In this document: one piece after another, positions 23,654 through 38,152 of the stretch
Numbering within the stretch: position 1 is the stretch's first letter
Layout of the letters: every line of letters begins with the position of its first letter
Source of the DNA: a virus
Reading direction: 5' to 3' (one strand)
UHGV virus genome: UHGV-0125199
Length of the DNA stretch: 64,000 bases
Made by a program: the position numbers and the translations under genes
Notes under the pieces: model-generated
Database searches by the model: none
Seen by the model: only the letters and a program-made list of their open reading frames with translations
Told to the model about the DNA's origin: nothing

Positions 23654-24838
23654 ATGAGTGAATATGAAGTACGCGTTGACACGAATGTAGACACAAGTGA
23701 ACTCGATTCCGCACAGAAAAAATTAGATAGTTTAGTTAAAAATGGAAAACATATTAAAGTTGATTTTGATATTCAGGGAATGAAGAACCTGAATAAGATC
23801 AATGGTGTCTTAAAAGGAATCGAAAAAAATAATAAGATCAGTGTAAAAGCTGATATGGATACATCCGGAATTAAAAAAGGATTATCTGATATTGAAAAAG
23901 CGAAACGAAGTGTTTCTACTTTAAAGATTGATGCAGATGTTTCAAAAGCGAATGCAGATTTTAAAAAGTTTGAATCTCTTACGACAAAATCCGCGGAAAA
24001 GGCTCGAAAGTTATTATCTGACATCAATAAAGATATTAATAATGTGAAATTGGCTCCAAATGATTCCATTATGGAAATTAATTTTAAAAAACTTACCAGT
24101 GATTTAGAAAAGTACAGGAATCAGATTAAGGTTGTACAAAATGAGCAAAAAGCTCTTGGTAATTCTATTACATCTGTATCAAAATCATTTAGTAAAATTG
24201 ATGCAGTAACTGCCTCTAACAAGACCTTAACGTGGTTAAAAAACAATAGTCGCGCTGCAAAAGTATATGGCGATCAACTAAAAGAAATTGCAGAATCTCA
24301 GAGAAAAGCAACATCAGATTCAGAGCTAACTTCACTAAATAAAGATTTCAACAAAACTGTATCTGAGGCAAAATTACTTGGACTTACTGGTAAAAGTTTT
24401 ACAGCGGAATTTAAACGTGCATTTTCTCAAATTGCACAGTTTACGCAAATTTATGGTGGAATTGAAAATGTAATTCAGACTATTCAAAACTCTGTTATTG
24501 AATTAAAAAATGTTGATTCTATTTTAACAGAAATTTCTAAAACATCTGATATGACAACAGATCAACTTACAAAACTTGGAGAAACATCTTTTGATTCCGC
24601 AAGCAAGTGGGGAAAGAAAGCAAGTGATTACCTACTTGGTATCCAAGAAATGAGTAGATCTGGCTATTATGGCAAACAGGCTGAACAAATGGCTGAAACA
24701 AGTATTCTTGCTCAGGCAGCCGGTGATTTAAATTCAGATGTTGCAAATAGTTATCTTTTGGCATCGAATGCCGCATATCAATATTCTGGAAATGTTCAAA
24801 AACTTAATGCATTGCTTGATGGACAAAATATGATTAAT
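23654..24838 (+). CDS. tail tape measure protein, segment A (ORF runs to 24868; probable exon ending near 24838)
   Basis: N-terminal coiled coil, then a TP901-type tape-measure core: ...TDQLTKLGETSFDSASKWG...AQAAGDLNSDVANSYLLASNAAYQ. The core is truncated and continues in the ORF at 26020. Confidence 0.65.
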
Positions 24839-26061
24839 ATAGTGGTCATGCTATATAGAAATATATAGCTTCATAGTTGGCTTTTATCCCGGAAACTCCA
24901 GAGATGGACAATCGGGAGGATAAGTTAAATAAAATACGGTAGAAAGAGGATATTATAGAAATAAAATTAAAATCATGGCAAACTCTCGCAAACTGTAAAT
25001 TTTGTAATAAAGAGTTTGTAACTACTAAATATAAGGTTAATAATAATAAAAATGGTGTTTTTTGTAGTAGAAGTTGTTATGCTGACTACAAAAAAGAAAC
25101 GATGACAGGTTCACAAAATATAAATTATAAAGAAAAGGTAAAGGTTCATTGCGATAATTGTGGTAAGGAAATTGAAAAAATACCATCTTTAACACATAAT
25201 ATAAACAAACAAGGAGAAAACCATAACTTTTGTTCTTATGAATGTTATTGGGAATTTCGTAAAAAATATTATGTCGGGGATAAATTATATAATACTGGAA
25301 AAAAGATGGACGAAATTTTTTGCAATAAGGTAAGAGAAGCAACATTAAAACAATATCAAGATGGTATACTTGATAGACAAACAATACCACAAAAGATAGT
25401 TAATAGTATATTAGAAAAAAATAATATTAATTATATCAATGAAAAAACTTTTAAATATTATTCTGTCGATAATTATTTAATAGAACATAATTTAATTATT
25501 GAAGTTATGGGTGATTATTTTCATGTGAACCCTTTAATTTATACAGATTCAAATGAGATGAATAATATGCAGAAAAAGGATATTGATAGAGACAAAAGTA
25601 AACATACATATATAAAAAAATATCAGGATGTTGAAATTTTATACCTATGGGAATCCGATATAAAAAATAATCCTTTATTATGTGAAGAATTAATAAAAAA
25701 ATATATAGAATCAAATGGCAAGTTGGAAGAATATAATTCTTTTAACTTTTCTTTTTGTGATAACAATTTAAAATTAAATAACAATATTATTAAACCGTAT
25801 TTTATTTAACCCCCTAACGACTAAGTTGTAATATGGTAACATATTGCACACGCCGACTTCGATAGATATAGTCTATCCGTTACCTATAAGTCCGTAGGAA
25901 CGCCTAACGTAAAACGAGGGAAAAGATATAGTCTAGTCTCACGCTATAATCTAAAAATGAAACGTGAGAGGTAGGATTAACGTCCTATCCGCTTTATTGT
26001 TATTTAACAATAAAGTCCAATGCTTTGTCCTGGAAGCATAGTAATAGAACAAACTAACAGG
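24839..26061 (+). mobile_element. group I intron (about 1.2 kb) in the tape-measure gene, with a homing endonuclease gene
   Basis: The two tape-measure ORFs are in different frames and each continues the same conserved core domain. R-like AACGACTAAG at 25816-25825. Two near-consensus S elements AGATATAGTC at 25864-25873 and 25924-25933. A G at 26061 is 128 nt after the second S element. The exact 5' splice site is not resolved. Confidence 0.55.
24952..25809 (+). CDS. intron-encoded Vsr/DUF559-like homing endonuclease with tandem N-terminal zinc fingers
   Basis: IIEVMGDYFHV...DIDRDKSKHTYIKKYQDVEILYLWESD fits the Vsr/DUF559 (EDxHD-type) nuclease fold. Two CxxC...CxxxC fingers. The frame is open from 24943 after an AAAGAGGA SD with no canonical start before ATG 25102. 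Confidence 0.6.
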   Translation: MIEIKLKSWQTLANCKFCNKEFVTTKYKVNNNKNGVFCSRSCYADYKKETMTGSQNINYKEKVKVHCDNCGKEIEKIPSLTHNINKQGENHNFCSYECYWEFRKKYYVGDKLYNTGKKMDEIFCNKVREATLKQYQDGILDRQTIPQKIVNSILEKNNINYINEKTFKYYSVDNYLIEHNLIIEVMGDYFHVNPLIYTDSNEMNNMQKKDIDRDKSKHTYIKKYQDVEILYLWESDIKNNPLLCEELIKKYIESNGKLEEYNSFNFSFCDNNLKLNNNIIKPYFI

Positions 26062-26778
26062 AACAGTGTATCCATGCAGGATATGGCAGAAGCCACAACT
26101 CAAGCAGCTTCAATGGCATCAGAATTGGGGGTTCAAGAAAATCAACTTTCTGCGATGATTGGAACAATTGAGTCCAGAACAAAAGCAGGTGGCAATGAGG
26201 TTGGTAATGCGATCAAATCATTGTTGATAAACGTTCAGAATGTAAATAACTCAAAAATTGCAGAAACGTTTAAAAAAGCTGGCGTTGCTCAGACAGAGTT
26301 TGTAAACGGTGTAGAAAAAATGCGTAATCCAATTGAAGTATTGGAGGATCTTGCGAAAGTATTTAATCAATTAGAAGAGTCAGATCCACTGCGTACAGAA
26401 ATTCTTACAAATATTGGACAGAAATACCAAGCGAACAAACTAAGTGCTTTATTATCTGGATGGTCTGACTATGAAAAAATGCTTGTAGATTATTCTGAGG
26501 GTACAGGAAGTGCTGCAAAAGAAGCAGAAAAATCTGCAAATAACTGGGAAGGATCTCTAAATAAATTATCAAATACTTGGACTGGATTTATTCAGAATTT
26601 CGCTAATTCCAACATGATTACTTCTGGATTACAAGGACTTACTGGAATAATTAAAATAATCGACACAGTTGTTTCAAAAGCAGGAACACTCGAAACTGTT
26701 ATGGGAGTTTTAGGTGGAGGATTAGCGAGTAAAACAGGATGGGGTAAAACTATCGTAGTTTATAATGCCCCTTTCTAT
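26062..26778 (+). CDS. tail tape measure protein, segment B (ORF 26020..26790)
   Basis: VSMQDMAEATTQAASMASELGVQENQLSAMIGTIESRTKAGGNEVGNAIKS...LEDLAKVFNQLEE...NKLSALL continues the tape-measure core. The frame runs into the downstream intron-like element and stops at 26790. Confidence 0.6.
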
Positions 26779-27250
26779 AAGGTTGCATAATAACGCCATG
26801 CAATTAACGTAGAGAGTGTTCATATTATATATCGTAGTGTAATATGACCATCCTTGGAAATATAGATTTTCTAAATTGTCGAATATCGGGGGAAGCCGTA
26901 AGCCTATTTATATAGGTACCGGAGCGATGCAATAAAAGCGTATTATTATATAGAAGAAATACGTTCGTGAAGGAATAAGCATTTAATGCGAAAATGGTAG
27001 TCCCGACGCACTATAACTAAAACATGGAAGTGTAGTTCCATATATAGGGCGCGAGAGACTGACAAGACATGACGTGATACAGGCGTAATTGTATCATATG
27101 GTACACAACATACAGTCCGTACCTGGGGAAAGCCCAGGGTAGTCAATATGAGATACGGCAGTATACACTACTGCTCTATTGATGCAAACTACACAACCTG
27201 TTGCTGACTTGCAAAAACAGGACAGGATTATACGGCGTATCTCTCGTCGT
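26779..27250 (+). ncRNA. group I intron-like core sequence at the 5' end of a 4 kb intervening segment
   Basis: TAACGCCATG (26791-26800) is identical to the 10-mer after the terL-intron endonuclease gene. GTAGAG (26809-26814) can pair as a guide sequence with the exon end TTCTAT (26773-26778). P-like CTAAATTGTCGAATATCGGGGGAAG, R-like GAGAGACTGACA (27053-27064) and S-like GGGTAGTCAATA (27137-27148). Confidence 0.4.
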
Positions 27251-27296
27251 TTTCTAATAGAGATAAAAAAATAGACACAAATTGTTTACATTCTAC

Positions 27297-27324
27297 TTGA
27301 CTTAATACAAGAAGAATGTATAAT
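27297..27324 (+). promoter_or_regulatory. sigma-A-type promoter
   Basis: TTGACT-16 nt-TATAAT, with a TG upstream of the -10. Confidence 0.4.
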
Positions 27325-27366
27325 AATACATGAGTTAAAAAATATAGCTCGAAACACCACGATGTA

Positions 27367-27397
27367 AGGACAGGGGATTACCTCCTGTCCTTTTGTT
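27367..27397 (+). terminator. terminator/attenuator hairpin
   Basis: AGGACAGG-ggattacct-CCTGTCCT followed by TTTGTTAT. Confidence 0.4.
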
Positions 27398-27537
27398 ATG
27401 TTGTGGAAACAAATAAATAGAATAATTTTTTCTTTCCAAAAACACAAGAGATATTTTAAATATAGAGAAAACAACTATATATAGGAAAAATTTATATAAT
27501 TAGTGTGTTTTTTATTTTTCCGCACTATATCTAGCGG

Positions 27538-27566
27538 TTGAACAAATTTAATAAAAAATGTATAAT
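27538..27566 (+). promoter_or_regulatory. sigma-A-type promoter for the small-gene/GNAT operon
   Basis: TTGAAC-17 nt-TATAAT. The ATGTATAATAA motif recurs at 27316, 27558 and 27632. Confidence 0.45.
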
Positions 27567-27668
27567 AAGATACACAAAAAATAGTCTAATTTATTTCTCA
27601 CGTTATATTTCGACATTTTGTTTAATTTTTTTGATGTATAATTGCTTCAAATACCAAGGGGTGATTAT

Positions 27669-27881
27669 ATGAAGTTAGGTAAAAAAGGATCCATACATAC
27701 AAAAGAGGAGGTAAGACATATGGCAGTCTCAATGGCAGTTGTACCGTTATTAAAAGGGGAAGCGGCTACTAAAATCGTAGATGATTTTAAAAGCAGCAAA
27801 TTAAAACCATTTACAGACGATCAACGTAAGAAGACTAATGCTAAAGTAGCTGAGATACTCAAAGGTAAACGTAATGGATAA
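27669..27881 (+). CDS. small protein overlapping the GNAT gene (candidate antitoxin/regulator)
   Basis: 70 aa from ATG 27669 (AAGGGGTGA SD). Its stop overlaps the GNAT start by 8 nt. Confidence 0.4.
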   Translation: MKLGKKGSIHTKEEVRHMAVSMAVVPLLKGEAATKIVDDFKSSKLKPFTDDQRKKTNAKVAEILKGKRNG

Positions 27882-28431
27882 CACAGAAAACTTTCAATAT
27901 AAAGAAGAGTTACTAAGCAAAGAGTCATTAAGACATTTTATGTTAGTAGGTGATTTTTGCTGTGGTGCAGACAATCCATTAAATACTTTCTTATCAGATG
28001 ATGCATTTGATTATGCAGAAGAAAAGCAAGGACACACATACATTTTAATGGACAACGAATACACTTGTATACTAGCATTTTACACAATTAAGGCTAATGC
28101 AATTCATACATTTAATATAGATACAAACGAATATATGGCGTTGCCTGTTGTGGAAATAGCAAGAATTGCTGTAGATTTTGACTTCCAAGGGAATGGTTTA
28201 GGGAAAATATTATTTTATGATTATATAATACCTAAAATAAAAAAAGTAAGTAAGATTATTGCAATATATGGTATCATTGTATTTGTAGAATCGGAAAATG
28301 GTCAAGGAATACAATTTTATAATTCACTAGGATTTAAAAGAGCCAATAATGAAATACAAAAAGCAGTTGGTGATTCTTATAACGAAAAATGTGAATTGTA
28401 TGTGCTGAAATTAGATGATATAAAAGAGTAG
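27874..28431 (+). CDS. GNAT-family N-acetyltransferase
   Basis: 185 aa. VEIARIAVDFDFQGNGLGKIL matches the acetyl-CoA-binding R/QxxGxG/A motif with the preceding beta strand. Confidence 0.7.
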   Translation: MDNTENFQYKEELLSKESLRHFMLVGDFCCGADNPLNTFLSDDAFDYAEEKQGHTYILMDNEYTCILAFYTIKANAIHTFNIDTNEYMALPVVEIARIAVDFDFQGNGLGKILFYDYIIPKIKKVSKIIAIYGIIVFVESENGQGIQFYNSLGFKRANNEIQKAVGDSYNEKCELYVLKLDDIKE

Positions 28432-28556
28432 GGAGTAATCCTACTCTTTTATTATATTGGCTGATGTTTTTATTTTATAGAAACATATGTTCAGACTACT
28501 CTTCTATTCATTATTGGTATATAATGGAAATACTAAAGATGAATAGGAGTAATATA

Positions 28557-29366
28557 ATGCCGAAATTTAAAGCCAGTTCTGTTATTTCGATGCTGAAACG
28601 GTTTACAGATGAAGAAAAAAATAAAAAAACTCAGTCTTGTCCGGAATTGAAGAATGAGATTAAAAATGTATTAGACGATACAAAGATCATTCTATATAAA
28701 CAATCCAGAGAGGACGCGATTAAATATATTTTATGGCAAGGATTATTGAATAGATATGGGATTTTTGGGAGCAACAGAAGACAACACCGCTTATTTGGTC
28801 AAGATAAAACAGATTATTATGCTCAAGAGTACCAACATGGAGATATTGTAAGTATAGACTTCGGAACATCGAATATTGGAAGCGAATTTTCGTTTACTCA
28901 TACCGCACTTGTTTTGCATGAATTTACTGATTTTTTAATTGTTATACCTATTACTACTGCTAAAGATGGTAGATTAGAGAATAAGCCATTGGATGAACAG
29001 GAATCAACATTTGTAATACATAAAAGTGATTTTTCGTTTATAGAAGCTGATTCATATGTATTAATATACCAGATAAAATCTATTTCAAAAAATAGAATCA
29101 CGAAAAGAATTGGGAATATAACAGGGTCAAAGTTTTTGTGTGACGTTGATAGCGAAGTGTTTAACATACTATTAGATCCGCTTTCAAAAAAAATATCAGA
29201 AGAAATAACAAACCTAAATATAAAGATATCAGATTATAAAAATATGATTGAAGAAAAAGATGAAAAAATAAGAGAATTAAATTGCTTGGTGGAAAATTTA
29301 AAACAAAATATTAAAAATAATGATAAAAATGTGTTGACAAATCTGGATTTCCATGATACCATATAG
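28557..29366 (+). CDS. protein containing a MazF/PemK-like domain with a C-terminal coiled coil
   Basis: GDIVSIDFGTSNIGSEFSFTHTALVLHEFTDFLIVIPITTA matches the MazF/PemK consensus Gdiv.vdf.p.GsE..g.RPalVv...........v.PiTs. Start chosen at ATG 28557 (AGGAGT SD); the ORF-track start is 28464. Confidence 0.5.
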   Translation: MPKFKASSVISMLKRFTDEEKNKKTQSCPELKNEIKNVLDDTKIILYKQSREDAIKYILWQGLLNRYGIFGSNRRQHRLFGQDKTDYYAQEYQHGDIVSIDFGTSNIGSEFSFTHTALVLHEFTDFLIVIPITTAKDGRLENKPLDEQESTFVIHKSDFSFIEADSYVLIYQIKSISKNRITKRIGNITGSKFLCDVDSEVFNILLDPLSKKISEEITNLNIKISDYKNMIEEKDEKIRELNCLVENLKQNIKNNDKNVLTNLDFHDTI

Positions 29367-29597
29367 GCATAAAAGATAGATATTTTTAGCAATGGCTATT
29401 AAATATAACTACATGGAGAGGTCTTTACGAATAAACGTAAAGACCTTCTTACTATTTAAAAATATATTTACGTTTTAATTAAAAAAGACTGGGTTATCAT
29501 ACCTAGTCTTTTCTCATGTATATTTTTAAATTCCAACTACTCTCCTCCCCACTAAAAATAGCTCTTACAGTTATTACGCTTCCACTGTTTACCGATA

Positions 29598-30035
29598 TTA
29601 TTTTGGTATATTATTGATAATTGCACTAATGTATTCCGGATCATTTATTATTGCATTAAAAATTGTACTGGCGAGTGACATAATTCCATGAATAGACGCA
29701 ACCCCCATTTTCTTCGCAGATTTTTTCGTTGCATTCCATATTGTCTCTGGTCTAACCGTATTTATAAAATTATGACCGCTCCATGAAATGTCATCAACAT
29801 GACCTGATAATTTTCTGTCTTTCCCATTATAATTTTTATATCCAGTAATATAGCCAGCGCTCATTAATTGTGTCAGTGTATATGCAACATCTTCTTCGGA
29901 ATATTTATTGTCTTGTGATAGTTCATTTATTATCGTTTTAAAAGAAATACCTTTTATAGAAAAATATTCACACATCACAAGATTATCCTCTAAATATATT
30001 AATGTGTCTCTTACACATTCAGGATTTAGTTTCAT
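29598..30035 (-). CDS. DUF2513 (YjcQ)-like protein
   Basis: 145 aa. ...VRDTLIYLEDNL...EEDVAYTLTQLMSAGYITGY resembles the DUF2513 signature. GGAGGT SD on the minus strand. Confidence 0.45.
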   Translation of the reverse strand: MKLNPECVRDTLIYLEDNLVMCEYFSIKGISFKTIINELSQDNKYSEEDVAYTLTQLMSAGYITGYKNYNGKDRKLSGHVDDISWSGHNFINTVRPETIWNATKKSAKKMGVASIHGIMSLASTIFNAIINDPEYISAIINNIPK

Positions 30036-30065
30036 AAGTTATACCTCCAAGAAAGGAATGATTAA

Positions 30066-30287
30066 ATGAAAGATATTACTATTCATTATAAAACAGATGA
30101 TGAAATGACAAATAAAGATAATCCTCTTTATGATCTACGCAGCCGAATAGCGGTTCTAGTCGATGGAAAACCAATTGAAAGATTAAAAAGGTTCTCAATT
30201 GATTTTGATGTTAACGACATAGAACCAACTTATTGTGTGGAGCAATATATGGATTTTCCCAATAACGATCAAGACTATACGATATAA
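30066..30287 (+). CDS. hypothetical protein (73 aa)
   Basis: AAAGGAA SD. Divergent from the DUF2513-like gene. Confidence 0.4.
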   Translation: MKDITIHYKTDDEMTNKDNPLYDLRSRIAVLVDGKPIERLKRFSIDFDVNDIEPTYCVEQYMDFPNNDQDYTI

Positions 30288-30303
30288 GTCTATCACTCTC
30301 CTC

Positions 30304-30783
30304 TCACGGTTTCCATGTATGACCACAGTTAGAACATCTATTGACTGTTTTATTACTTCCTAAGAATCCAGTCAGGATTGAGTAGCCTTTTTGCCCGGCG
30401 GTAATTGATGTAGATCCACATTTCGGACAACGTGGTTTAGATTCCTCTGCTTTCTTACGTTCTTCCTCTGCTTCTTTGGCTTGAACTTGTGACCGGAATT
30501 GCGACATTTTTAATTCATATTCTATGATATCGTCATCGTGTAATTTTATCATTGCATCGTAGAAATCTGTGGAATCTGAGATTTTTGACAGAATAATAAA
30601 ATCATCATCCGGCATTGATGTCATGATTATTGGATGACCATATGGGCATTCTGTAGCAGTGTCTTCATAGAAATACACATAACCATTTCTATAAATTCCA
30701 TCTTGTATTTTTTCTTTTTTGCATGTTGGACATATTTTTAAATGATTAACCATATTTATCCCCCTATATATTTTTAATTGCAA
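30304..30783 (-). CDS. zinc-ribbon protein
   Basis: 159 aa. N-terminal CPTCKK...ECPYGH and C-terminal CPKCGS...CSNCGHTW zinc ribbons. AGGGGGA SD. Confidence 0.5.
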   Translation of the reverse strand: MQLKIYRGINMVNHLKICPTCKKEKIQDGIYRNGYVYFYEDTATECPYGHPIIMTSMPDDDFIILSKISDSTDFYDAMIKLHDDDIIEYELKMSQFRSQVQAKEAEEERKKAEESKPRCPKCGSTSITAGQKGYSILTGFLGSNKTVNRCSNCGHTWKP

Positions 30784-30907
30784 GTTATTTATATATAGTT
30801 TATCAGAACAATAGACGATTGTAAACTACGACTCTGATGCGGATAAATTCACATCTATTTTTGACAATTTTAAAAAGAAAACAAAACCTAAATTTAATCA
30901 AGATACA

Positions 30908-33900
30908 TTGGATTTTGCAAAAGAATTCAATAAGCTGGGTAAGAATTCAAATATTGATAATATAGTTTCTCAATTTAAAGAGGTGGATTCTAGTGTTGTT
31001 GATATGGCAAAGTCTGTAAAAGATGGTTCTATGTCAATGGATGAGTTCATTGAAAAATCTACAAAAGCTACAACTACCTCTTCTAAATTCAGTAGAATGG
31101 CAAAAACTGCTGGTACCGCACTGAAGTCAATTGGTGCTACTGCTCTGAATATGTTTGGTGGTTTTCTTATTGCTGAGGGGCTTAGTCTTGCAATAAAAGG
31201 AATTTATAATCTTATAAACGCAGACAAGATTGCAATTGAAAATGGGGAAAAGGCTCAACAGGAAATTAAGGAAGTATTTGATACTTACAACGGAAAAGTC
31301 GATACGATTAAAACGCTAGGAAAGAAATTTGCCCAAGATGCAGATTCAATCAAGACCACAGGTGATGCCGTAGAATCACTAACTAAAAAATATGCAGAAC
31401 TTAGAAAAGGTGTCAGTTCAGATAATACAAATCTTACTCTTTCTGAAAAGGAATACCAGGACTATCTTGACATAAGCAATCAATTAGCTGAATCATTCCC
31501 ATCACTTGTATCTGGTAGTGATGCAGCCGGAAATTCTATTTTAAATTTAGGTGACAATGCGTCTGTTGCCGCTGACAAAATGGAAAAACTGCAAAAAACA
31601 CAAATGACGTTGGCTCATAATGATATTGTTGATAAATCAAGAGATACATTTAGGGGTGCATTTGAAAAAGCAGACAATATTGAAGATGAGATAAAATCAT
31701 TAAAAGGTCAAGAAAAACAATTAAAAGAATCTGCTTCTCAAATATCTTTAAGCCGAGATGAAATCAGAGAACAGCTTAAAAGTGGACATCTTATCTTCAA
31801 GGATATGTCTAAAACCGACGCAGACAAGATGGAAAAGGCACTTGGAGCATATGTCGGGAAAGAATTGGGTCGTGTCAGACGGTCTGACGTATCTTTGGAT
31901 GGTCACACTATTGACAGAATCGAATTTACAATTGATCCTGTAGTAGATGAGAACAAACTTAATGAAGCAACTGATATGATTGAGGCTAGAGTTTTAGCTG
32001 GAGAAGATGAGATTGCAGCTAAAAAAGGTGAAATACAATCCAATATTAAAGCACAAGAACAAAAGCAAAAAGAAGTCTGGAATAGTTTTGCTGAAAGCAC
32101 AGTAAAACCTTATCTTGAAACATCTGCTGCTATTTCTGATATGCCTGTTGAATTACTTAATGCAGTAGAAAGTAATTTACAGAATTTAGATTGGAAAAAA
32201 CTTTATAAAGAATACGGCGGAGATGCCGATCAGATGCTTTTGGATGAATTAGTTTCGCCGCTAAACAGTCTAGAAAAACCGGCACAAGAAGCTTTGACAA
32301 AGGCTCTTAGTTTAGACCCATCAACAATGTCTATTGCTGAATATAATAAAGCTATTGACTCTGCTTTGAAGGAAGTTTCTGATAACAAAGCAACCAGAAA
32401 AGAATGGAAAAATAGATTCTTTAAATCTGCTATCGATTCTGCAACTGAAGATGCTAATGCATTAAAAGAGCAGTTTAAAGGCATAGATAAAGAGATCGAC
32501 AACTTAAGCGGAGAAGACAGGGAGTTAGCATACCAAATTGCTATTGAGGATGAGGATTTCGACGGAACTTGGCAAGATGTAATGGACAAGATTAAGACCA
32601 TGAAAGAAGAAGCCGAAAATCCGATGACATTCAATCTTGGTACATTTACATCAGAAGTTGGAGATGCGATTGCTTTAATTGATACATTAAATGCTGCTCT
32701 TGCAAATAGTTATTCTGGAAAAGGATTAAGCGTATCTTATGAAGTAGACGAAGAAACTGGTGTTGTACAGTTAACTGGAGACATCGCAAATCTTCAAGCA
32801 GCTTATTCAGATTTAGAAGGATATGATCCATCTATTCTATTCGAAAGAACAGCAAATGGTGTACATATTAACAGAGAAGCTCTTAGACAATTACAGGCTC
32901 AAGAAGAAGCTTTGAACAAGTCTAAATGGCTCGAAGACGAAAAGAATCTTACAGATCAATTAGCAGTGGCTACCAACAAATTAGCAAATGCAAAGAATTC
33001 TGGAAGTGAATCTGATGTTGCGTCCGCACAAGCAACCGTGGATTCATTACAACAACAGTTGGAGCAAGTTCAATTGTTGTCAGCTGCATATGACGGAGCC
33101 ACTTCTGCATATCAGCAATGGATAAATGTACAATCATCTGGTGAAGATGGAGATATGTATAGAAACGTCTCTGAAACTATGAAAACAAGGGGCGATGCGT
33201 TATACAAAGAAGGTCGATATAATACAGAAGAATTTCGTGCAATTGCCGACTACTTCTCCAATGAAGATTTGTCTACTGCACCAATGGAAAAACTTGTTGC
33301 TGCTTATGAAAATGCTGCTAATGCAAGAGAAAGATACTTTACCGGGAATAAACAGGGTATTGATAATTTCATGGCTGATATGCAAAATGATGCAGAATTA
33401 ATGTCAAAAGGGATTGTCAAAACACTTGAAGACGGAACTATGGAATTCCAAACTGGTTCAGATAAAATATTGGCTGATAAATTCCATCTTAGCGAAGAAG
33501 CAATTCAATCTATTTTAAGAGCTGCATCAGAATATGATGATGGTATAAAAATAGGTAAAATTGACGGTTCAGAAGACTTTAATGCATCTATTGATGAAAT
33601 GAAATCAAAAGCTGACGAAGCAAAAGGCAAACTTGAAGAATTAAAGAATGCTGGAAATCAGAGTCTGGATTTAGATTTTAATTTCGATAGTACAGACTTA
33701 GAAGATTTAGATAGTCAGATTGAACGTGCAAAATCTAATCTTGATCAATTCAAAAATTCAGATGGTCAGATTGATTTAAATGTCGAAGGCGCTCAAGAAG
33801 CTGTTACAATTTTACAAACCCTTATTCAGCAAAAGATTATGGTGAGCCAGCCGGCAATTATGACAATTGACACGACTGGACTTGATGAAGCTACTGCTGA

Positions 33901-36727
33901 TACGGTTTCTAAGTTGCAAGAATTTCAAGAGCAATTAAACACTGTTAATTCATTAGAGATGCAACAAGATTTTGGAATTCAAGTAGACACTAACCAACTT
34001 GACGCTGCGAAGGCTAAGGCTCAAGAATTATTCTCAGAATTGCAAGGAAAATCAGAAGATGGTTCACTTGAAATTACACCAGATGTAAAAGTTGATACAG
34101 GATCAATGGAGTCATTGGAGCAAAGTTTGTCTTCTATGACGCCTGAAATAAAAGCAAAAATTGTTCCAGATGGAAATGTATCTGATACTCTGGTTACTGG
34201 TGATATTAAGGTTGAAGACCAGACTGCAAAGGTAGATTATGTAAGAGGAAGCCAAGAAGCTCCTGCTGACAGAACTGCTTCTGTTGATTATATTAAAAAG
34301 GGCACAACACAAATTGAACCTGCCGACAAGAGTGCTGCTGTAACTTATAGTAAGATTGGCGGAGAACAAGCACCTCCATCGGACAAGAACGCAAATGTTA
34401 ATTATAAAAAAGGGGAACAAGAAGCACCGAGTAAGAAAAATGCAGTTGTCGATTATAAACGTGGATCACAAGAATTGCCTGATTCACCTAAAAGTGCAAC
34501 TGTTAATTATACTCTTGGAAATGTTGCTACTCCACCAGACGCTTATGTAAAAGTACACTATGATACATCCGGAAAACCAAAAGGTAGTAGTCCAGCCAAT
34601 GGTACTGCTCATTCACAAGGAAGTGCCAACTCTGGTCATGCATTTTCTAGTGGATCGTGGGGATTAAAACAACCTGAAAAGGGCGCTCTGATAAATGAAT
34701 TAGGTGCAGAAATTATTGTCAGAAATGGACAGTGGTTTGTAGAAAATAATGGATATCCTACTATCACTAATCTCAAAAAGAATGATATCGTGTTCAATCA
34801 TGAACAATCCAAAGCTTTGTTAGAACGAGGATATGTTACTGGATCTCATGCTAAATTAGCATATGAAGGCAATTCTCATGCAAAAGGAACTGCATTTTCT
34901 GGGGGGTCTTGGACTTTTGGGAATACAGGTGGTGGAAACATTGGAGGCACCAACACTACTTCCAACAATCTCAACTCCGCATCAAATAATCTTGCCAAAG
35001 CTGCTTCTGATACTTCCAAAGCAGCATCTGATACATCCGAAGCTGCCGAGAAATTATCAGAAGCAGTATCCGGATACACGGACTGGGTTGAGGTGTTATT
35101 CAAACGCTTAGAATCACAGTATGATTTGCTGATGAGTCAAATGGAGCGTATCGCACATCTCCCAGACAAGCAACAGAAACTGTATGAGGCAATGTCTAAG
35201 AACAGTGAACTACTGAATAGGACTCAGCAAGCAATTGGGACTTATCAAAGTCATTTTGATTCTATTGTACAACAGAGTGGAATAAACCCACTTATCGTAC
35301 ATCAGATTCAGAACGGGTCTATGGATATTTCAAAATACGACCAGGATACTCAAAAAATAATCAGTGAGTTGCAGTCTTATTATGATAAGCTCGTAGACTG
35401 CAATAAACAGTACGATGACCTCTTAAATAAACAGAGTGAACTGGCGCAGACAGCATTGGATAATATTGAAGATTACATCGATATGATGACTGGAATTGAG
35501 TCCTCTGCTGTAGATTATCAGGAAGCATTACGTGAATTAGCAGCTGCAAAAGGAGAATCTGCATATTCCGATAATATGTATGGCTCTCTGCAAGAATCTA
35601 TTAAAAATCAACAGGACGTTGCAGGTAAATTACAGTCACAGATTAAATCATATCAAGATGAAATCAATAAACTCATGGCAAATGGGTATATGGCTGAATA
35701 CTCAACGGAATGGTTTGAAGCACAAGCTGCATTAAATGGATTCCGGCAAGAAGCTGCTGAAGCTGAGAAAACACTGATTGAATTACAAGATCAGTTAAGA
35801 GAACTTGATTTACTGAAACTGCAACAGGTTATTGATGAGTTAGACAGAACTGCAAAACGACTGGAAAACAATTCTGACCTTACAGAATCAAAAGGTGAAC
35901 AGGTATCTGAAAAAGATTTACAGGCACAGCTTGACAATGCAAATGCACAGATTCAGGCAAATTACGATAAGCGGAATGAACTATTAAAGGATCAGGCAAA
36001 ATATGATGTCGGTTCTGACAAATATAATGAAATTGCGGAAGAGATAGAAAAGCTCGATGACGCTATCTTTGATGCAATGGAGAACATTGAAGACCTCAAA
36101 AATAAAATCTGGGAAGTAAGATGGCAACCGTTCTTTGATGGACAGGAAGCATTAGGTGATCTGATTGACCAGACAGATGATTTAAGAGGACTTTTAAATA
36201 GTGATGCTTTTCTTGATAAGAACGGCGGTTTAACTGTAGATGGTATTGCAAATTTGTCTTTGATTAGTCAGGGTATGAATGCTGCGAAACAGCAAATCAA
36301 GAATTATCAAGAGGCATTGAAGAAGCTTGATGAGGATTTAAAGAACGGGAATATCTCAACAAGTGAATATAAGGAGCAGCAAAAAGAATTTCTCAATCAG
36401 ATTTCAAGCTCTGTTGGCGTTGTTGAAGACTACAAAGATTCTATTGTTGATCTCTATACAAAGATGCTTGAGCAAGAGAATGAAGTTGCTCAAAAATCGA
36501 TTGATAAGCAGAAGGAATTGTTGGATATCAAAAAGAAAAATGCTGATTACAATAAGACTCTGCGTAAACAGGCTAGAGATGTGAATACATTGAAAGCTCA
36601 GATTTCAGCACTCGAAGGCGTGAAGTTATTTGCGCGACTTCTATTTAATAGCGGGAAAGTCCCCACAACCCTATCTTGCTACAACGGAACTGGAAACGGT
36701 AAACGTGAATGCGGTACGAGTTTATAA
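30908..36727 (+). CDS. tail tape measure protein, main segment C (1939 aa ORF; frame open from 30815; probable exon about 30818..36676)
   Basis: Glycine-zipper hydrophobic segment AKTAGTALKSIGATALNMFGGFLIAEGLSLAIKG, more than 1000 aa of helical repeats, a conserved ...GAEIIVRNGQWF...DIVFNHEQSKAL tape-measure C-region, then a 600-aa coiled coil. TTG start in the ORF track. Confidence 0.7.
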   Translation: MDFAKEFNKLGKNSNIDNIVSQFKEVDSSVVDMAKSVKDGSMSMDEFIEKSTKATTTSSKFSRMAKTAGTALKSIGATALNMFGGFLIAEGLSLAIKGIYNLINADKIAIENGEKAQQEIKEVFDTYNGKVDTIKTLGKKFAQDADSIKTTGDAVESLTKKYAELRKGVSSDNTNLTLSEKEYQDYLDISNQLAESFPSLVSGSDAAGNSILNLGDNASVAADKMEKLQKTQMTLAHNDIVDKSRDTFRGAFEKADNIEDEIKSLKGQEKQLKESASQISLSRDEIREQLKSGHLIFKDMSKTDADKMEKALGAYVGKELGRVRRSDVSLDGHTIDRIEFTIDPVVDENKLNEATDMIEARVLAGEDEIAAKKGEIQSNIKAQEQKQKEVWNSFAESTVKPYLETSAAISDMPVELLNAVESNLQNLDWKKLYKEYGGDADQMLLDELVSPLNSLEKPAQEALTKALSLDPSTMSIAEYNKAIDSALKEVSDNKATRKEWKNRFFKSAIDSATEDANALKEQFKGIDKEIDNLSGEDRELAYQIAIEDEDFDGTWQDVMDKIKTMKEEAENPMTFNLGTFTSEVGDAIALIDTLNAALANSYSGKGLSVSYEVDEETGVVQLTGDIANLQAAYSDLEGYDPSILFERTANGVHINREALRQLQAQEEALNKSKWLEDEKNLTDQLAVATNKLANAKNSGSESDVASAQATVDSLQQQLEQVQLLSAAYDGATSAYQQWINVQSSGEDGDMYRNVSETMKTRGDALYKEGRYNTEEFRAIADYFSNEDLSTAPMEKLVAAYENAANARERYFTGNKQGIDNFMADMQNDAELMSKGIVKTLEDGTMEFQTGSDKILADKFHLSEEAIQSILRAASEYDDGIKIGKIDGSEDFNASIDEMKSKADEAKGKLEELKNAGNQSLDLDFNFDSTDLEDLDSQIERAKSNLDQFKNSDGQIDLNVEGAQEAVTILQTLIQQKIMVSQPAIMTIDTTGLDEATADTVSKLQEFQEQLNTVNSLEMQQDFGIQVDTNQLDAAKAKAQELFSELQGKSEDGSLEITPDVKVDTGSMESLEQSLSSMTPEIKAKIVPDGNVSDTLVTGDIKVEDQTAKVDYVRGSQEAPADRTASVDYIKKGTTQIEPADKSAAVTYSKIGGEQAPPSDKNANVNYKKGEQEAPSKKNAVVDYKRGSQELPDSPKSATVNYTLGNVATPPDAYVKVHYDTSGKPKGSSPANGTAHSQGSANSGHAFSSGSWGLKQPEKGALINELGAEIIVRNGQWFVENNGYPTITNLKKNDIVFNHEQSKALLERGYVTGSHAKLAYEGNSHAKGTAFSGGSWTFGNTGGGNIGGTNTTSNNLNSASNNLAKAASDTSKAASDTSEAAEKLSEAVSGYTDWVEVLFKRLESQYDLLMSQMERIAHLPDKQQKLYEAMSKNSELLNRTQQAIGTYQSHFDSIVQQSGINPLIVHQIQNGSMDISKYDQDTQKIISELQSYYDKLVDCNKQYDDLLNKQSELAQTALDNIEDYIDMMTGIESSAVDYQEALRELAAAKGESAYSDNMYGSLQESIKNQQDVAGKLQSQIKSYQDEINKLMANGYMAEYSTEWFEAQAALNGFRQEAAEAEKTLIELQDQLRELDLLKLQQVIDELDRTAKRLENNSDLTESKGEQVSEKDLQAQLDNANAQIQANYDKRNELLKDQAKYDVGSDKYNEIAEEIEKLDDAIFDAMENIEDLKNKIWEVRWQPFFDGQEALGDLIDQTDDLRGLLNSDAFLDKNGGLTVDGIANLSLISQGMNAAKQQIKNYQEALKKLDEDLKNGNISTSEYKEQQKEFLNQISSSVGVVEDYKDSIVDLYTKMLEQENEVAQKSIDKQKELLDIKKKNADYNKTLRKQARDVNTLKAQISALEGVKLFARLLFNSGKVPTTLSCYNGTGNGKRECGTSL

Positions 36728-37330
36728 CTCAACAGTCTTCGGATAGAAACCATAAAAAACAGATAGGTCAGGGATAACCGGGTGTGCAAGTCACCCAGAC
36801 GCAACGAACTTCCTAAGTCATATATGATTTATGATATGGAAGACGCTCAACGACTGGTAAGTCCTATATATTATAATATGTAGGCATAGGGTTACAAGCG
36901 ATTGGTAACTCGAAAAATATAGACTATTTGAATAAGAAATGAAATGAACAATTAAATATGATATATGTTATAATTAAGATACATCTATGATGCACTTATG
37001 AATACAAGAACGTATGTTTTGTATATATTTAACAATTGTAAACATATCACTTTGTTTGTATTTTGTGTAGAATTTTCTCCGTATATGGGATATAATAATA
37101 ACAAGAAAACAGCAGTGTTTTCTTAAATATATCTGGTGTGATGCAGCGTAATATGACTGCTATAAATAATCTTTGAAGTGTACGCCGGGTTAGGAACCGG
37201 TTTACATGGAGATTTACAAAGGTGCGAGGATTTACCATAGCCTAACTAGGAACTATGTTCTGAAAGAAAGTCCTTGAATGAATAGAAGGGTCATCACCAG
37301 TGACTCTTCTATTTTTATACCAAGGAGAAG

Positions 37331-37932
37331 TTATGGATAATATATCATTGGCACTAAATAATTTCAAAGAATTGATGAATTGCAATTATGATTTTATAAT
37401 AGTTTGTAATAAGCAAAAATCAGATATAAAACTTACATTTGAATCAAAAGATTTTTATCATTTAGTAGGGTTTCAATACTTAAAAGATATAGACATCCCT
37501 AAAAATGAAAAACAGTTATTTAAAAAAATAGAATCTCTTAAGATTACTGATGAGTATTTAGGCAAAAGTGTGTTTTATACAAAAGTGGATTACAGCTATG
37601 CAAATGTAAAAGAACGAATTTCCGGATTTAAAGATGTTGATAAATTTATAGAAAACAAAAATATTATATGTAGATATATAAAAACTAATAACCCTTCATC
37701 GGCTATAAAAGCGGATTATTTAATAAAAAGTACTTTATATAACAGAACGGCATATATGTTTTTGAGAAAAAGAAGCAAAGGAGATGAATATTGTATGTGT
37801 TCATTTTTTATGCAACCACAAAATGAATATATAGGTCAAAAAACATATTGGTTGTATAAAGCCAAAAAACGTATATCGGACAATTATGTTAAAATATTGT
37901 TAGATAGAATATCGGAATCCACAGAGCAGTAA
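37331..37932 (+). CDS. intron-located ORF of unknown family (candidate homing endonuclease)
   Basis: 200 aa from ATG 37331 (AAGGAGAAG SD). Sits between the R and S elements. No LAGLIDADG, GIY-YIG, HNH or Vsr motif recognised. Followed by the terminator at 37924-37958. Confidence 0.45.
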
Positions 37933-37958
37933 CAGGTAATACTACTGCTCTTTTATTA
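37924..37958 (+). terminator. rho-independent terminator after the intron ORF
   Basis: GAGCAGTA-(11 nt)-TACTGCTC followed by TTTTATTATG. Confidence 0.5.
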
Positions 37959-38152
37959 TGTCCAAAATCATTTCAAAAAAAATTCCAAATTATTCAAATA
38001 GAAGGTATAGTCTCAACTTCTGAGGATAACTCAGAGAAGTTCATAAGAGAACTGCATAGCGTAGCGAACTATGTGAAGATAATTGAAATAATGCGAGTGC
38101 TCAGGCTGAATTAAAGAGGTTAAAAGCACAACTCAGAGATACAGAAGAAGAA

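Follow-up and report, generated by a model that had tools for sequence, protein, structure and literature searches.

The closest known system to the element described here is the IStron, represented by CdISt1 and BcISt1, in which a group I core lies at the 5' end and an insertion sequence (IS) element is embedded at the 3' end (PMC4227781, PMC3984707). Group I introns (TMP-IVS1-3), including different introns at one site, have also been described in the tape-measure protein (TMP) genes of Bacillus cereus group prophages (PMC2504315). Here we analyzed a stretch of 64,000 nucleotides (nt) of UHGV virus genome UHGV-0125199 (hereafter the window, whose numbering is used throughout), in which the TMP gene is interrupted at positions 26779-30817. 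We consider it probable that this segment is a single group-I-type intron of the TMP gene that is spliced from the RNA and carries an exchangeable accessory cassette. No description of cargo-carrying introns of this type was found in the searchable literature. The B. cereus group TMP introns are reportedly of ordinary size, with or without an endonuclease gene, and we know of none described with multi-gene accessory cargo. In the T4 nrdD (sunY) intron the core stands 5' of a long 3' extension that contains a single open reading frame (ORF), which is about 0.8 kb long and encodes an endonuclease.

The window is part of a low-GC prophage. It has no DNA match among GenBank phages (megablast, blastn and tblastn), which gave a single TMP match, at 28%. 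IMG/VR contigs of 107-177 kb and chromosomes of Mediterraneibacter gnavus (assembly GCA_002959615.1 is a cultured carrier) contain copies that are identical or nearly so; the neighbours of the chromosomal copies, an integrase and a gene with a YonJ_N domain, indicate an SPbeta-like prophage. The TMP gene lies in pieces, consisting of A (23654-24835), exons B and C (Table 1) and another after ~38.1 kb. Two more distant relatives (L009 and L010; related loci are given L numbers) encode a single TMP of 2721 residues that spans A, B and C, so the gene was evidently once continuous; the uninterrupted TMPs are too divergent at the B/C point to place the junction. The ORF that contains B (26020-26790) runs four codons past the proposed splice site (KVA and then the stop at 26790), and the C frame is open from 30815, so the ORF list agrees with the first-pass annotation of this DNA, according to which B reads into the element and the C frame reopens beyond it. 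In NCBI records and in the output of gene callers, B-type and C-type ORFs are separate entries. Exon C probably ends near 36.7 kb, at the start of the next intron.

The first in-frame ATG, GTG or TTG of exon C is a TTG at 30908; no Shine-Dalgarno sequence precedes it, and L001 has TTA instead. The window also shows a TAG stop two codons upstream of 30818. Yet coding constraint is evident from the first base. Over positions +1 to +90 of exon 2 the window and L001 show 17 differences, distributed 7/1/9 over the three codon positions, and synonymous codons number 7 in frame versus 1 and 0 in the other frames. In very divergent TMPs the protein similarity (IVNYDSD versus VFNYDKD) begins at exon-2 codon 1. 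Judged from these sequences, exon C is translated in the C frame without an initiation site of its own, which excludes separate translation; this calls for the joining of B and C at the RNA level, joining at the DNA level being much less likely.

The interruption is found in two divergent exon contexts. In L031 the identity to the window is 97.4% over 26731-30556 (~3.8 kb), whereas the TMPs are only 23-36% identical, and L031/L032 and L144, in which A and B are contiguous, carry the same element. The element moves as a unit. Its left junction is precise to 12 nt and its right breakpoint lies inside the cargo, a pattern that would fit homing with short co-conversion and subsequent recombination. 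Elements with the same core, here called family W, are 3272-5024 nt long, or about 5.7 kb in M. gnavus, and by this comparison the cargo is swappable on the same core. In total, four RNA families interrupt the TMP gene at a homologous codon (AFFKxxx/, where the slash marks the junction). These are W (the window, L001-5, L013/17/31/32; 3.3-5.0 kb, about 5.7 kb in M. gnavus), X (L007, L008, L011/12; 2.2-5 kb), Y (L016, L018; 3' junction outside the loci) and Z (L006, L034-47; 3.8-7.9 kb). The Z family gives a sub-threshold match to Rfam Intron_gpI (23 bits) and has canonical R and S elements, and its P7 covaries (GACUA/UAGUC in L006, GAGUA/UACUC in L043). The X and Y families have a P1 with the U·G pair and show compensatory changes in P8/P9. 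The introns of relatives at this site hold 2-8 kb of unrelated cargo, including a Bro-N/KilAC antirepressor, a Spo0A_C-like protein, zinc-ribbon proteins and, identified by eye, an ImmA/IrrE-like HExxH protein (L018) and small ORFs with membrane- or lipoprotein-signal-like N-termini; many of their proteins have no family match.

The junctions carry the signals of a group I intron. The proposed intron is 4039 nt long and both of its splice sites fall on codon boundaries. At the 5' end, exon bases UUUCUAU (26772-78) pair with GUAGAGA (26809-15) to form P1, with U26778·G26809 at the junction. The first-pass annotation had recognized a P1-compatible guide (GTAGAG with exon TTCTAT), and this pairing is indeed present in the minimum-free-energy fold and invariant in 16 variants. 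The 5' splice site was placed after U26778. A site at 26750 was rejected, as the exon there diverges between hosts and the intron guide sequence does not change. The left identity between the window and L031 begins at G26767 (GCCCCUUUCUAU/AAG), with divergent exon sequence upstream. At the 3' end, nine of nine W-type tails end in ACG and the preceding base is variable (two lineages), which makes G30817 the best candidate for the terminal guanosine (omega-G). An alternative 3' site after 30814 is also in frame; G30814 is not conserved, in contrast to G30817. X-family introns end in YUG and Z-family introns in UAG. The 3' tail of the W type also contains an invariant TTGCAA 40 nt upstream of the splice site. 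Its invariant UUGCAAGU is complementary to ACUUGCAA in the P9.1 loop (27206-13), at a level not above chance; duplex energies between core and 3' tail are no better than those of shuffled tails, so that as a helix closing the cargo ACUUGCAA/UUGCAAGU is a lead only. The S-like TATATAGTTTATC described earlier at 30792-30804 is present; it is not conserved in L031/L144 despite the same core and is probably not part of P7. A search of viral contigs with the 3'-tail pattern returned mostly chance AT-rich matches.

The first ~490 nt of the element form a conserved structured RNA. The region 26740-27400 folds far better than its shuffles (z = -6.97), and in 16 distinct W-type cores (90-98% identical) 98.8% of structure cells are paired. 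Double changes that preserve pairing were seen twice in P2, once in P6 and twice in P9, and shuffles never attained the observed values. The assignment of core helices in Table 1 is a hand model in window coordinates, helped by comparison with the X and Y families. In this model J3/4 is 6 nt, J4/5 is GAA, J6/7 is CGA, and the bulged A of P7 lies beside the G57-C17 pair (27057/27117). The P8 loop is homologous among the three families (GGCGUAAU in W, UGCCAUAAAU in X/Y), and a GAGAG-type motif precedes P7 in all of them. UAGUC at 27140-44 was rejected as the 3' strand of P7, the sequence being changed in L001-type variants, and a home-made group I descriptor was discarded for lack of discriminating power.

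The two exons are complementary to each other across the element. The arms of this exon-exon helix form 14 bp with one G·U, and the helix runs precisely up to the 3' splice site. L031/L144 have CAUAGUUGAA/UUCAACUAUG as arms, which differ from those of the window by two compensatory double changes, and here too the helix borders directly on the splice site. Within the first TMP context, changes are limited to U/C opposite G and A/G opposite U. The bracketing inverted repeat of the first-pass annotation is therefore real and 14 bp long, with its arms 2 and 1 nt away from where they had been placed and outside the mobile unit. The arms sit in divergent exons, covary with them and keep their complementarity, including G·U pairs. 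As arms outside the conserved mobile unit are not transposon ends, and as arms that change together yet stay complementary argue for RNA pairing, these features point to a repeat that acts by pairing in RNA. The duplex energy by itself is unremarkable: 17 of 2000 shuffles reach its value and other genomic partners are lower still. The case for the helix rests on its position and covariation. It occurs in the W family only, the Z family being without such a helix. The mature mRNA would hold a hairpin whose 14-nt loop (GCCCC and the P1 strand) ends at the ligation point, a geometry that resembles an intron in a tRNA anticodon loop. A single intron serves two different exon-2 sequences, with weak P10 pairing in both, and we infer from this that the exon-exon helix may take over the alignment of the 3' exon.

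An H-type pseudoknot closes the core, and both of its stems covary across families. Stem S1 is CGGCG/CGUCG in the window, CGGCA/UGUCG in L007 and CGAU/AUCG in L008, and stem S2 is AUCUCU/AGAGAU, ACCUCU/AGAGGU and CAUUAC/GUAAUG, respectively. The differing cargo starts directly after it, and in L016 a Y-type core is joined at the pseudoknot to W-type cargo. About three quarters of the matches in a metagenome 17-mer search were unrelated contexts, and 23 had the pseudoknot (24 with the hand-added L101). The pseudoknot 17-mer GTCGTTTTCTAATAGAG is also found in an abundant unrelated human-gut context, TGCTTTTTTTATCATTGTATGTGTCGTTTTCTAATAGAGACGTAATTTCTC (L050, L052, L055 and ~40 others). The exon-exon helix and the boundary pseudoknot are apparently two undescribed RNA features.

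Removal of the intron would join exon B (...NAPFY) to exon C (IVNYDSD...), giving the predicted mRNA junction ...CCCCUUUCUAU/AUUGUAAAC... or, in its longer form, ...GCCCCUUUCUAU/AUUGUAAACUACGA... (a 26-mer). Catalysis would be provided by the ~490-nt 5' RNA, modelled as a group-I-type ribozyme, with the 5' splice site chosen through P1 and its U26778·G26809 pair and G30817 used as the terminal guanosine. The 14-bp exon-exon helix would hold the 3' exon beside the P1 loop across 4 kb, which is the usual job of P10. With its own promoters and terminators the cargo could be expressed in the prophage without relying on late transcription of the TMP gene, and the left-hand pseudoknot and right-hand tail, both conserved, may serve as recombination anchors for cassette swaps. 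The first-pass annotation had offered two alternatives for this segment, and it is the first, a group I intron with an accessory-gene island, that we favour on the grounds of the startless exon C, the junction signals, the 5' core and the other intron RNAs at the same codon.

Several findings weigh against this interpretation. Rfam Intron_gpI (RF00028) gave no match to 26740-27300 at E <= 10, nor to 24500-31500, and targeted searches of the X and Y families with the Rfam group I model also gave none; at the Rfam gathering threshold, too, nothing was obtained for W, X or Y. This negative carries limited weight, because the intron between A and B, with R/S motifs and proven empty sites, is missed too and the C/D intron and the Z family (L006) reach only 19.5 and 23 bits, with a gathering score of 50. 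P3, P4, P7 and P8, the helices that define group I, never vary in the 16 W sequences, and a loose topology descriptor finds hundreds to thousands of solutions in every AT-rich RNA tested. Thus, of the group-I-like core claimed in the first-pass annotation, the hand model fits, whereas an Rfam match is missing and the core helices are invariant; group I membership is supported at the junctions and unproven for the core. The exon-exon helix is backed by two independent exon contexts only, and its exon-2 arm overlaps a candidate -35 box and coding sequence. A conserved pairing that brackets the cargo was not established. No empty B/C site was found among close relatives, either in a search for the spliced-junction protein or with DNA patterns in viral and genome contigs, the DNA patterns giving two matches that were both due to chance. 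No homing endonuclease or transposase that could move the element was found in it. Finally, two intrinsic terminators on the + strand (27366-92 and 29418-47) and two genes on the minus strand separate the core from exon 2, so that cis-splicing needs a 4-kb read-through. How the 3' splice site is reached is the main uncertainty of the intron reading, and it keeps trans joining alive.

A broader and more tentative proposal, which we hold to be possible although doubtful, is that W, X and Y are an undescribed branch, or a distinct class, of self-splicing introns in SPbeta-like gut prophages, acting as platforms for exchangeable cassettes within an essential gene, with an exon-exon clamp in place of P10, a conserved terminal pseudoknot and possibly trans-splicing. 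Trans joining itself would mean that the transcript of exon B and the core ends at the pseudoknot or at ~27392, that exon C has its own transcript from a promoter close to the 3' end of the element and that the exon-exon helix unites the two RNAs in a split-intron reaction. This arrangement would suit the strong + strand terminator 100 nt past the core, the second one at 29418 and the convergent minus-strand genes between core and exon C, as well as a helix that covaries in the W family and is absent from the Z family, and the conservation of TTGCAA in the tail. We regard it as unlikely, however: no convincing + strand promoter is present in both tail lineages (-10 candidates match 3-4/6 and the promoter scan lists none there), and the Z-family introns of 4-8 kb do without an exon-exon helix. 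Moreover, we know of no phage or bacterial group I intron shown to trans-splice, and phage late transcription often reads through terminators.

It is quite improbable that the element is a self-splicing or protein-assisted intron of a non-group-I class, its junction signals being convergent or coincidental. The lack of an Rfam group I signal in W, X and Y, when Z and C/D reach 19-23 bits, could be read in this way, as could the unusual exon-exon clamp, the terminal H-type pseudoknot and the branched P1 loop. The combination of a U·G pair in P1, a guide 30-90 nt downstream and a terminal G is, however, a group I prediction; the helix order is compatible with P3-P9, with a bulged-A/G-C P7 in W and Y; and the insertion codon of W, X and Y is common to the Z-family group I intron. 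A group II intron was rejected for its wrong boundaries (no GUGYG start) and for the lack of a domain-V-like 3' hairpin and a reverse transcriptase.

The second alternative of the first-pass annotation, an insertion with terminal inverted repeats that splits the gene into separately translated proteins, did not hold up. In this scenario an accessory-gene or transposon insertion would never be removed, and B and C would jointly serve as the tape measure. The own stop codon of B, the separate annotation of B-type and C-type ORFs and the inverted repeat around the segment are what such an insertion would predict. We consider it highly improbable, given that C offers neither a start codon nor a Shine-Dalgarno sequence in its first 90 nt although coding constraint holds from +1, that the repeat sits beyond the limits of the conserved unit and changes together with the exons, that no transposase or recombinase is present, and that such an insertion gives no account of the conserved, structured 490-nt RNA and its P1 pairing. 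DNA-level excision in lytic growth that restores the TMP gene, like the intervening elements of sporulation genes, would suit an SPbeta-like prophage with YonJ_N and integrase nearby, and such prophages are known for developmentally excised elements, but it is barely credible for an element without a recombinase or direct repeats at its ends, for which viral, genome and protein collections yielded no empty site and which is present in virion-derived contigs.

Turning to the cargo of the proposed intron, six ORFs on both strands occupy 27297-30783, all downstream of the core, together with two + strand promoters and two + strand terminators, much as the first-pass annotation had listed; its GNAT, MazF-like, DUF2513 and zinc-ribbon labels agree with Pfam matches. 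The promoter and terminator unit next to the core is kept in W variants and in L016. Its near-consensus promoter is followed ~45 nt on by the terminator, giving a predicted transcript of ~65 nt (a small RNA or leader). The best PDB matches of the GNAT protein (E about 2e-8) are TacT/KacT/AtaT, toxins of type II toxin-antitoxin (TA) systems. The 70-residue ORF before it has no family match in Pfam, PADLOC, PHROGs or NCBIfam and is kept alongside the GNAT gene in L001-5, L013 and L147. The 300-residue protein with the MazF-like domain is atypical and has no PDB sequence match. X-family introns have zinc-ribbon genes at the same position, and on the minus strand of L031 a hexamer pair equivalent to the promoter-like site at the 3' splice site (TTGAAA, 17 nt, TACACT) can be recognized by eye. 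Of the TA or defence-like signatures reported earlier, TA is supported for the GNAT gene (PDB matches) and the PemK domain; defence is not, as PADLOC gave no match for any of the six cargo proteins, and the label of defence island was dropped in favour of a putative TA pair plus ordinary prophage accessory genes. No transposase, TnpA, TnpB or recombinase was found among the cargo ORFs (Pfam, PHROGs, NCBIfam, PADLOC), and no transposase, TnpA or TnpB in the cargo of relatives. The most fitting description of the cargo is a set of prophage accessory ('moron') genes under promoters of their own.

Table 1. Features of the interrupted TMP gene, the proposed intron and its cargo, in window coordinates.
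Feature	Position	Strand	Details
TMP exon B	26053-26778	+	Pfam PhageMin_Tail; A-side junction set by intron-less alleles
Exon-1 arm of exon-exon helix	26753-26766	+	UCGUAGUUUAUAAU; pairs with 30818-30831
GCCCC linker and P1 exon strand UUUCUAU	26767-26778	+	Sole exon bases kept between the two TMP contexts
Ribozyme-like core, ~490 nt	26779-27265	+	Fold z score, variants, hand model
P1a (hand model)	26781-88/26798-805	+	
Guide sequence (hand model)	26809-15	+	
P2 (hand model)	26820-30/37-47	+	
P2.1 (hand model)	26856-61/66-71	+	
P3 (hand model)	26876-80/27061-65	+	
P4 (hand model)	26887-91/27001-05	+	
P5 region (hand model)	26896-26989	+	
P6/P6a (hand model)	27007-51	+	
P7 (hand model)	27057-60/27114-17	+	G27055-C27118; A27056 bulged
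P8 (hand model)	27074-97	+	
P9 (hand model)	27122-38	+	GAAAG loop
P9.1 (hand model)	27197-221	+	
H-type pseudoknot closing the core	27233-27264	+	S1 27233-37/27245-49; S2 27239-44/27259-64
Strong promoter and terminator unit	27297-27397	+	Promoter 27297-27324 (11/12 consensus); terminator 27366-27392
Second promoter, upstream of putative TA pair	27538-27566	+	10/12 consensus matches
70-residue ORF, candidate antitoxin	27669-27881	+	Overlaps GNAT gene by 8 nt
GNAT acetyltransferase, TacT/KacT/AtaT toxin type	27874-28431	+	Pfam GNAT; PDB matches
300-residue protein, central PemK/MazF-like domain (residues 125-223)	28464-29366	+	Pfam E 8e-10; PHROGs MazF-like
Terminator between convergent genes	29418-29447	+	Terminator scan
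DUF2513 protein	29598-30035	-	Pfam E 1.9e-19
73-residue ORF	30066-30287	+	Conserved in L001/L031; 49% identity in L006
Zinc-ribbon protein, last cargo gene	30304-30783	-	Pfam; W/L031 identity breaks inside, at 30556
Intron 3' tail	30778-30817	+	Invariant UUGCAAGU at 30778-85; ends ACG, terminal G 30817
Promoter-like site for zinc-ribbon gene	30797-30825	-	Straddles 3' splice site; -35 box in exon 2
Exon-2 arm of exon-exon helix	30818-30831	+	Begins at exon-2 base 1
TMP exon C	30818-36727	+	No start or Shine-Dalgarno sequence; coding constraint from first base

The TMP gene is interrupted at other points as well. The A/B intron (24836-26052) contains an ORF of 235 residues (25102-25809) with a weak homing-endonuclease match, and its exact empty site is present in L006, L009 and protein P0005 (junction ATGATT/ACTAAC). 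It ends in ...GAACAA, thus in A and not G, and by eye has the canonical-looking R/S motifs CUAACGACUAAG and AAGAUAUAGUCUAG, with no Rfam match. The C/D interruption (36730-38150) is the third in the gene and has an R-like element at ~36848, an S-like element at ~38001 and an Rfam Intron_gpI score of 19.5 bits. Between the two elements lie a 'drum' RNA (Rfam, 37168-37278, 66 bits), the gene of a PBECR4 nuclease (37300-37932) and a terminator, so that drum RNA, for which PMC5737381 lists no known function, and the protein gene associated with it appear to be cargo of a group I intron here. Relatives show further interruptions in exon B, at 10531-12422 in L004/L005 (residues 177/178), at 10384-10896 in L011/L012 (residues 138/139) and near 10543 in L033 (about residue 181), so the TMP gene of this phage group is a hotspot with at least six insertion sites. 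The 9-mer CTACTGCTC has five + strand copies in the window (23591, 27168, 31137, 37942 and 38454) versus about 0.24 expected, and those at 27168 and 37942 are the 3' arms of GCAGTA...TACTGC hairpins; the 'terL-intron 10-mer' mentioned in the first-pass annotation could not be identified. In M. gnavus chromosomes (P0005/P0006; L147-L149) the annotated 'tape measure protein' of 611-614 residues has a terminase-large-subunit-like N-terminus (by eye) joined to the C-terminal part of segment A, which suggests a large deletion in that prophage copy; the copy with this terminase-TMP fusion has a W-type intron of ~5.7 kb with other cargo, including a Trypsin_2 protein.

If splicing occurs as proposed, phage group-I-type introns would be harbours and shuttles for multi-gene cassettes such as TA modules, antirepressors and lipoproteins, and intron cargo would extend beyond homing endonucleases or IS elements. 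This accessory-gene traffic would be overlooked by gene-by-gene annotation, in which such TMP genes are now recorded as truncated or split, and intron cores abundant in the human gut would be escaping Rfam. The element would also supply two candidate RNA devices, an exon-exon clamp for a 3' site 4 kb away and a boundary pseudoknot.

Compared with described systems, the TMP element shares with the B. cereus group TMP introns its host gene, the occurrence of several introns per TMP gene and the lack, in some of them, of a complete homing endonuclease gene. The exon-exon stem recalls the cyanobacterial tRNA-Leu intron, which lies in a hairpin loop whose stem forms by exon-exon pairing; that stem serves the mature tRNA, whereas the TMP stem lies within coding sequence. 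The cargo resembles morons and TacAT/KacAT/AtaRT modules in consisting of self-promoted, terminator-bounded genes with a TacT-like GNAT protein after a small overlapping ORF. It differs from them in its location inside an intron of an essential structural gene, not between genes, and in a 70-residue upstream ORF without a recognisable antitoxin domain, where GNAT/ribbon-helix-helix (RHH) modules have an RHH/DUF1778 antitoxin. As in IStrons, the whole ribozyme or ribozyme-like core lies 5' and kilobases of protein-coding DNA precede the distant 3' splice site, a short T-rich stretch whose last base is U precedes the insertion, and the hosts are Clostridia-class bacteria and their phages. Unlike IStrons, the TMP element has no IS200/IS605/IS607 transposase or TnpB, has an exon-exon helix and a core that is not recognised by Rfam, and is confined to a single fixed site in one gene, where IStrons occur at many places in the genome; at 3.3-8 kb, TMP elements are also longer than IStrons (about 1.4-2.6 kb), and they carry a variable set of accessory genes, encoded on both strands and equipped with promoters and terminators of their own. 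The best classification of the element is as an IStron-like, cargo-bearing intron of group I type that serves as a harbour for moron genes.

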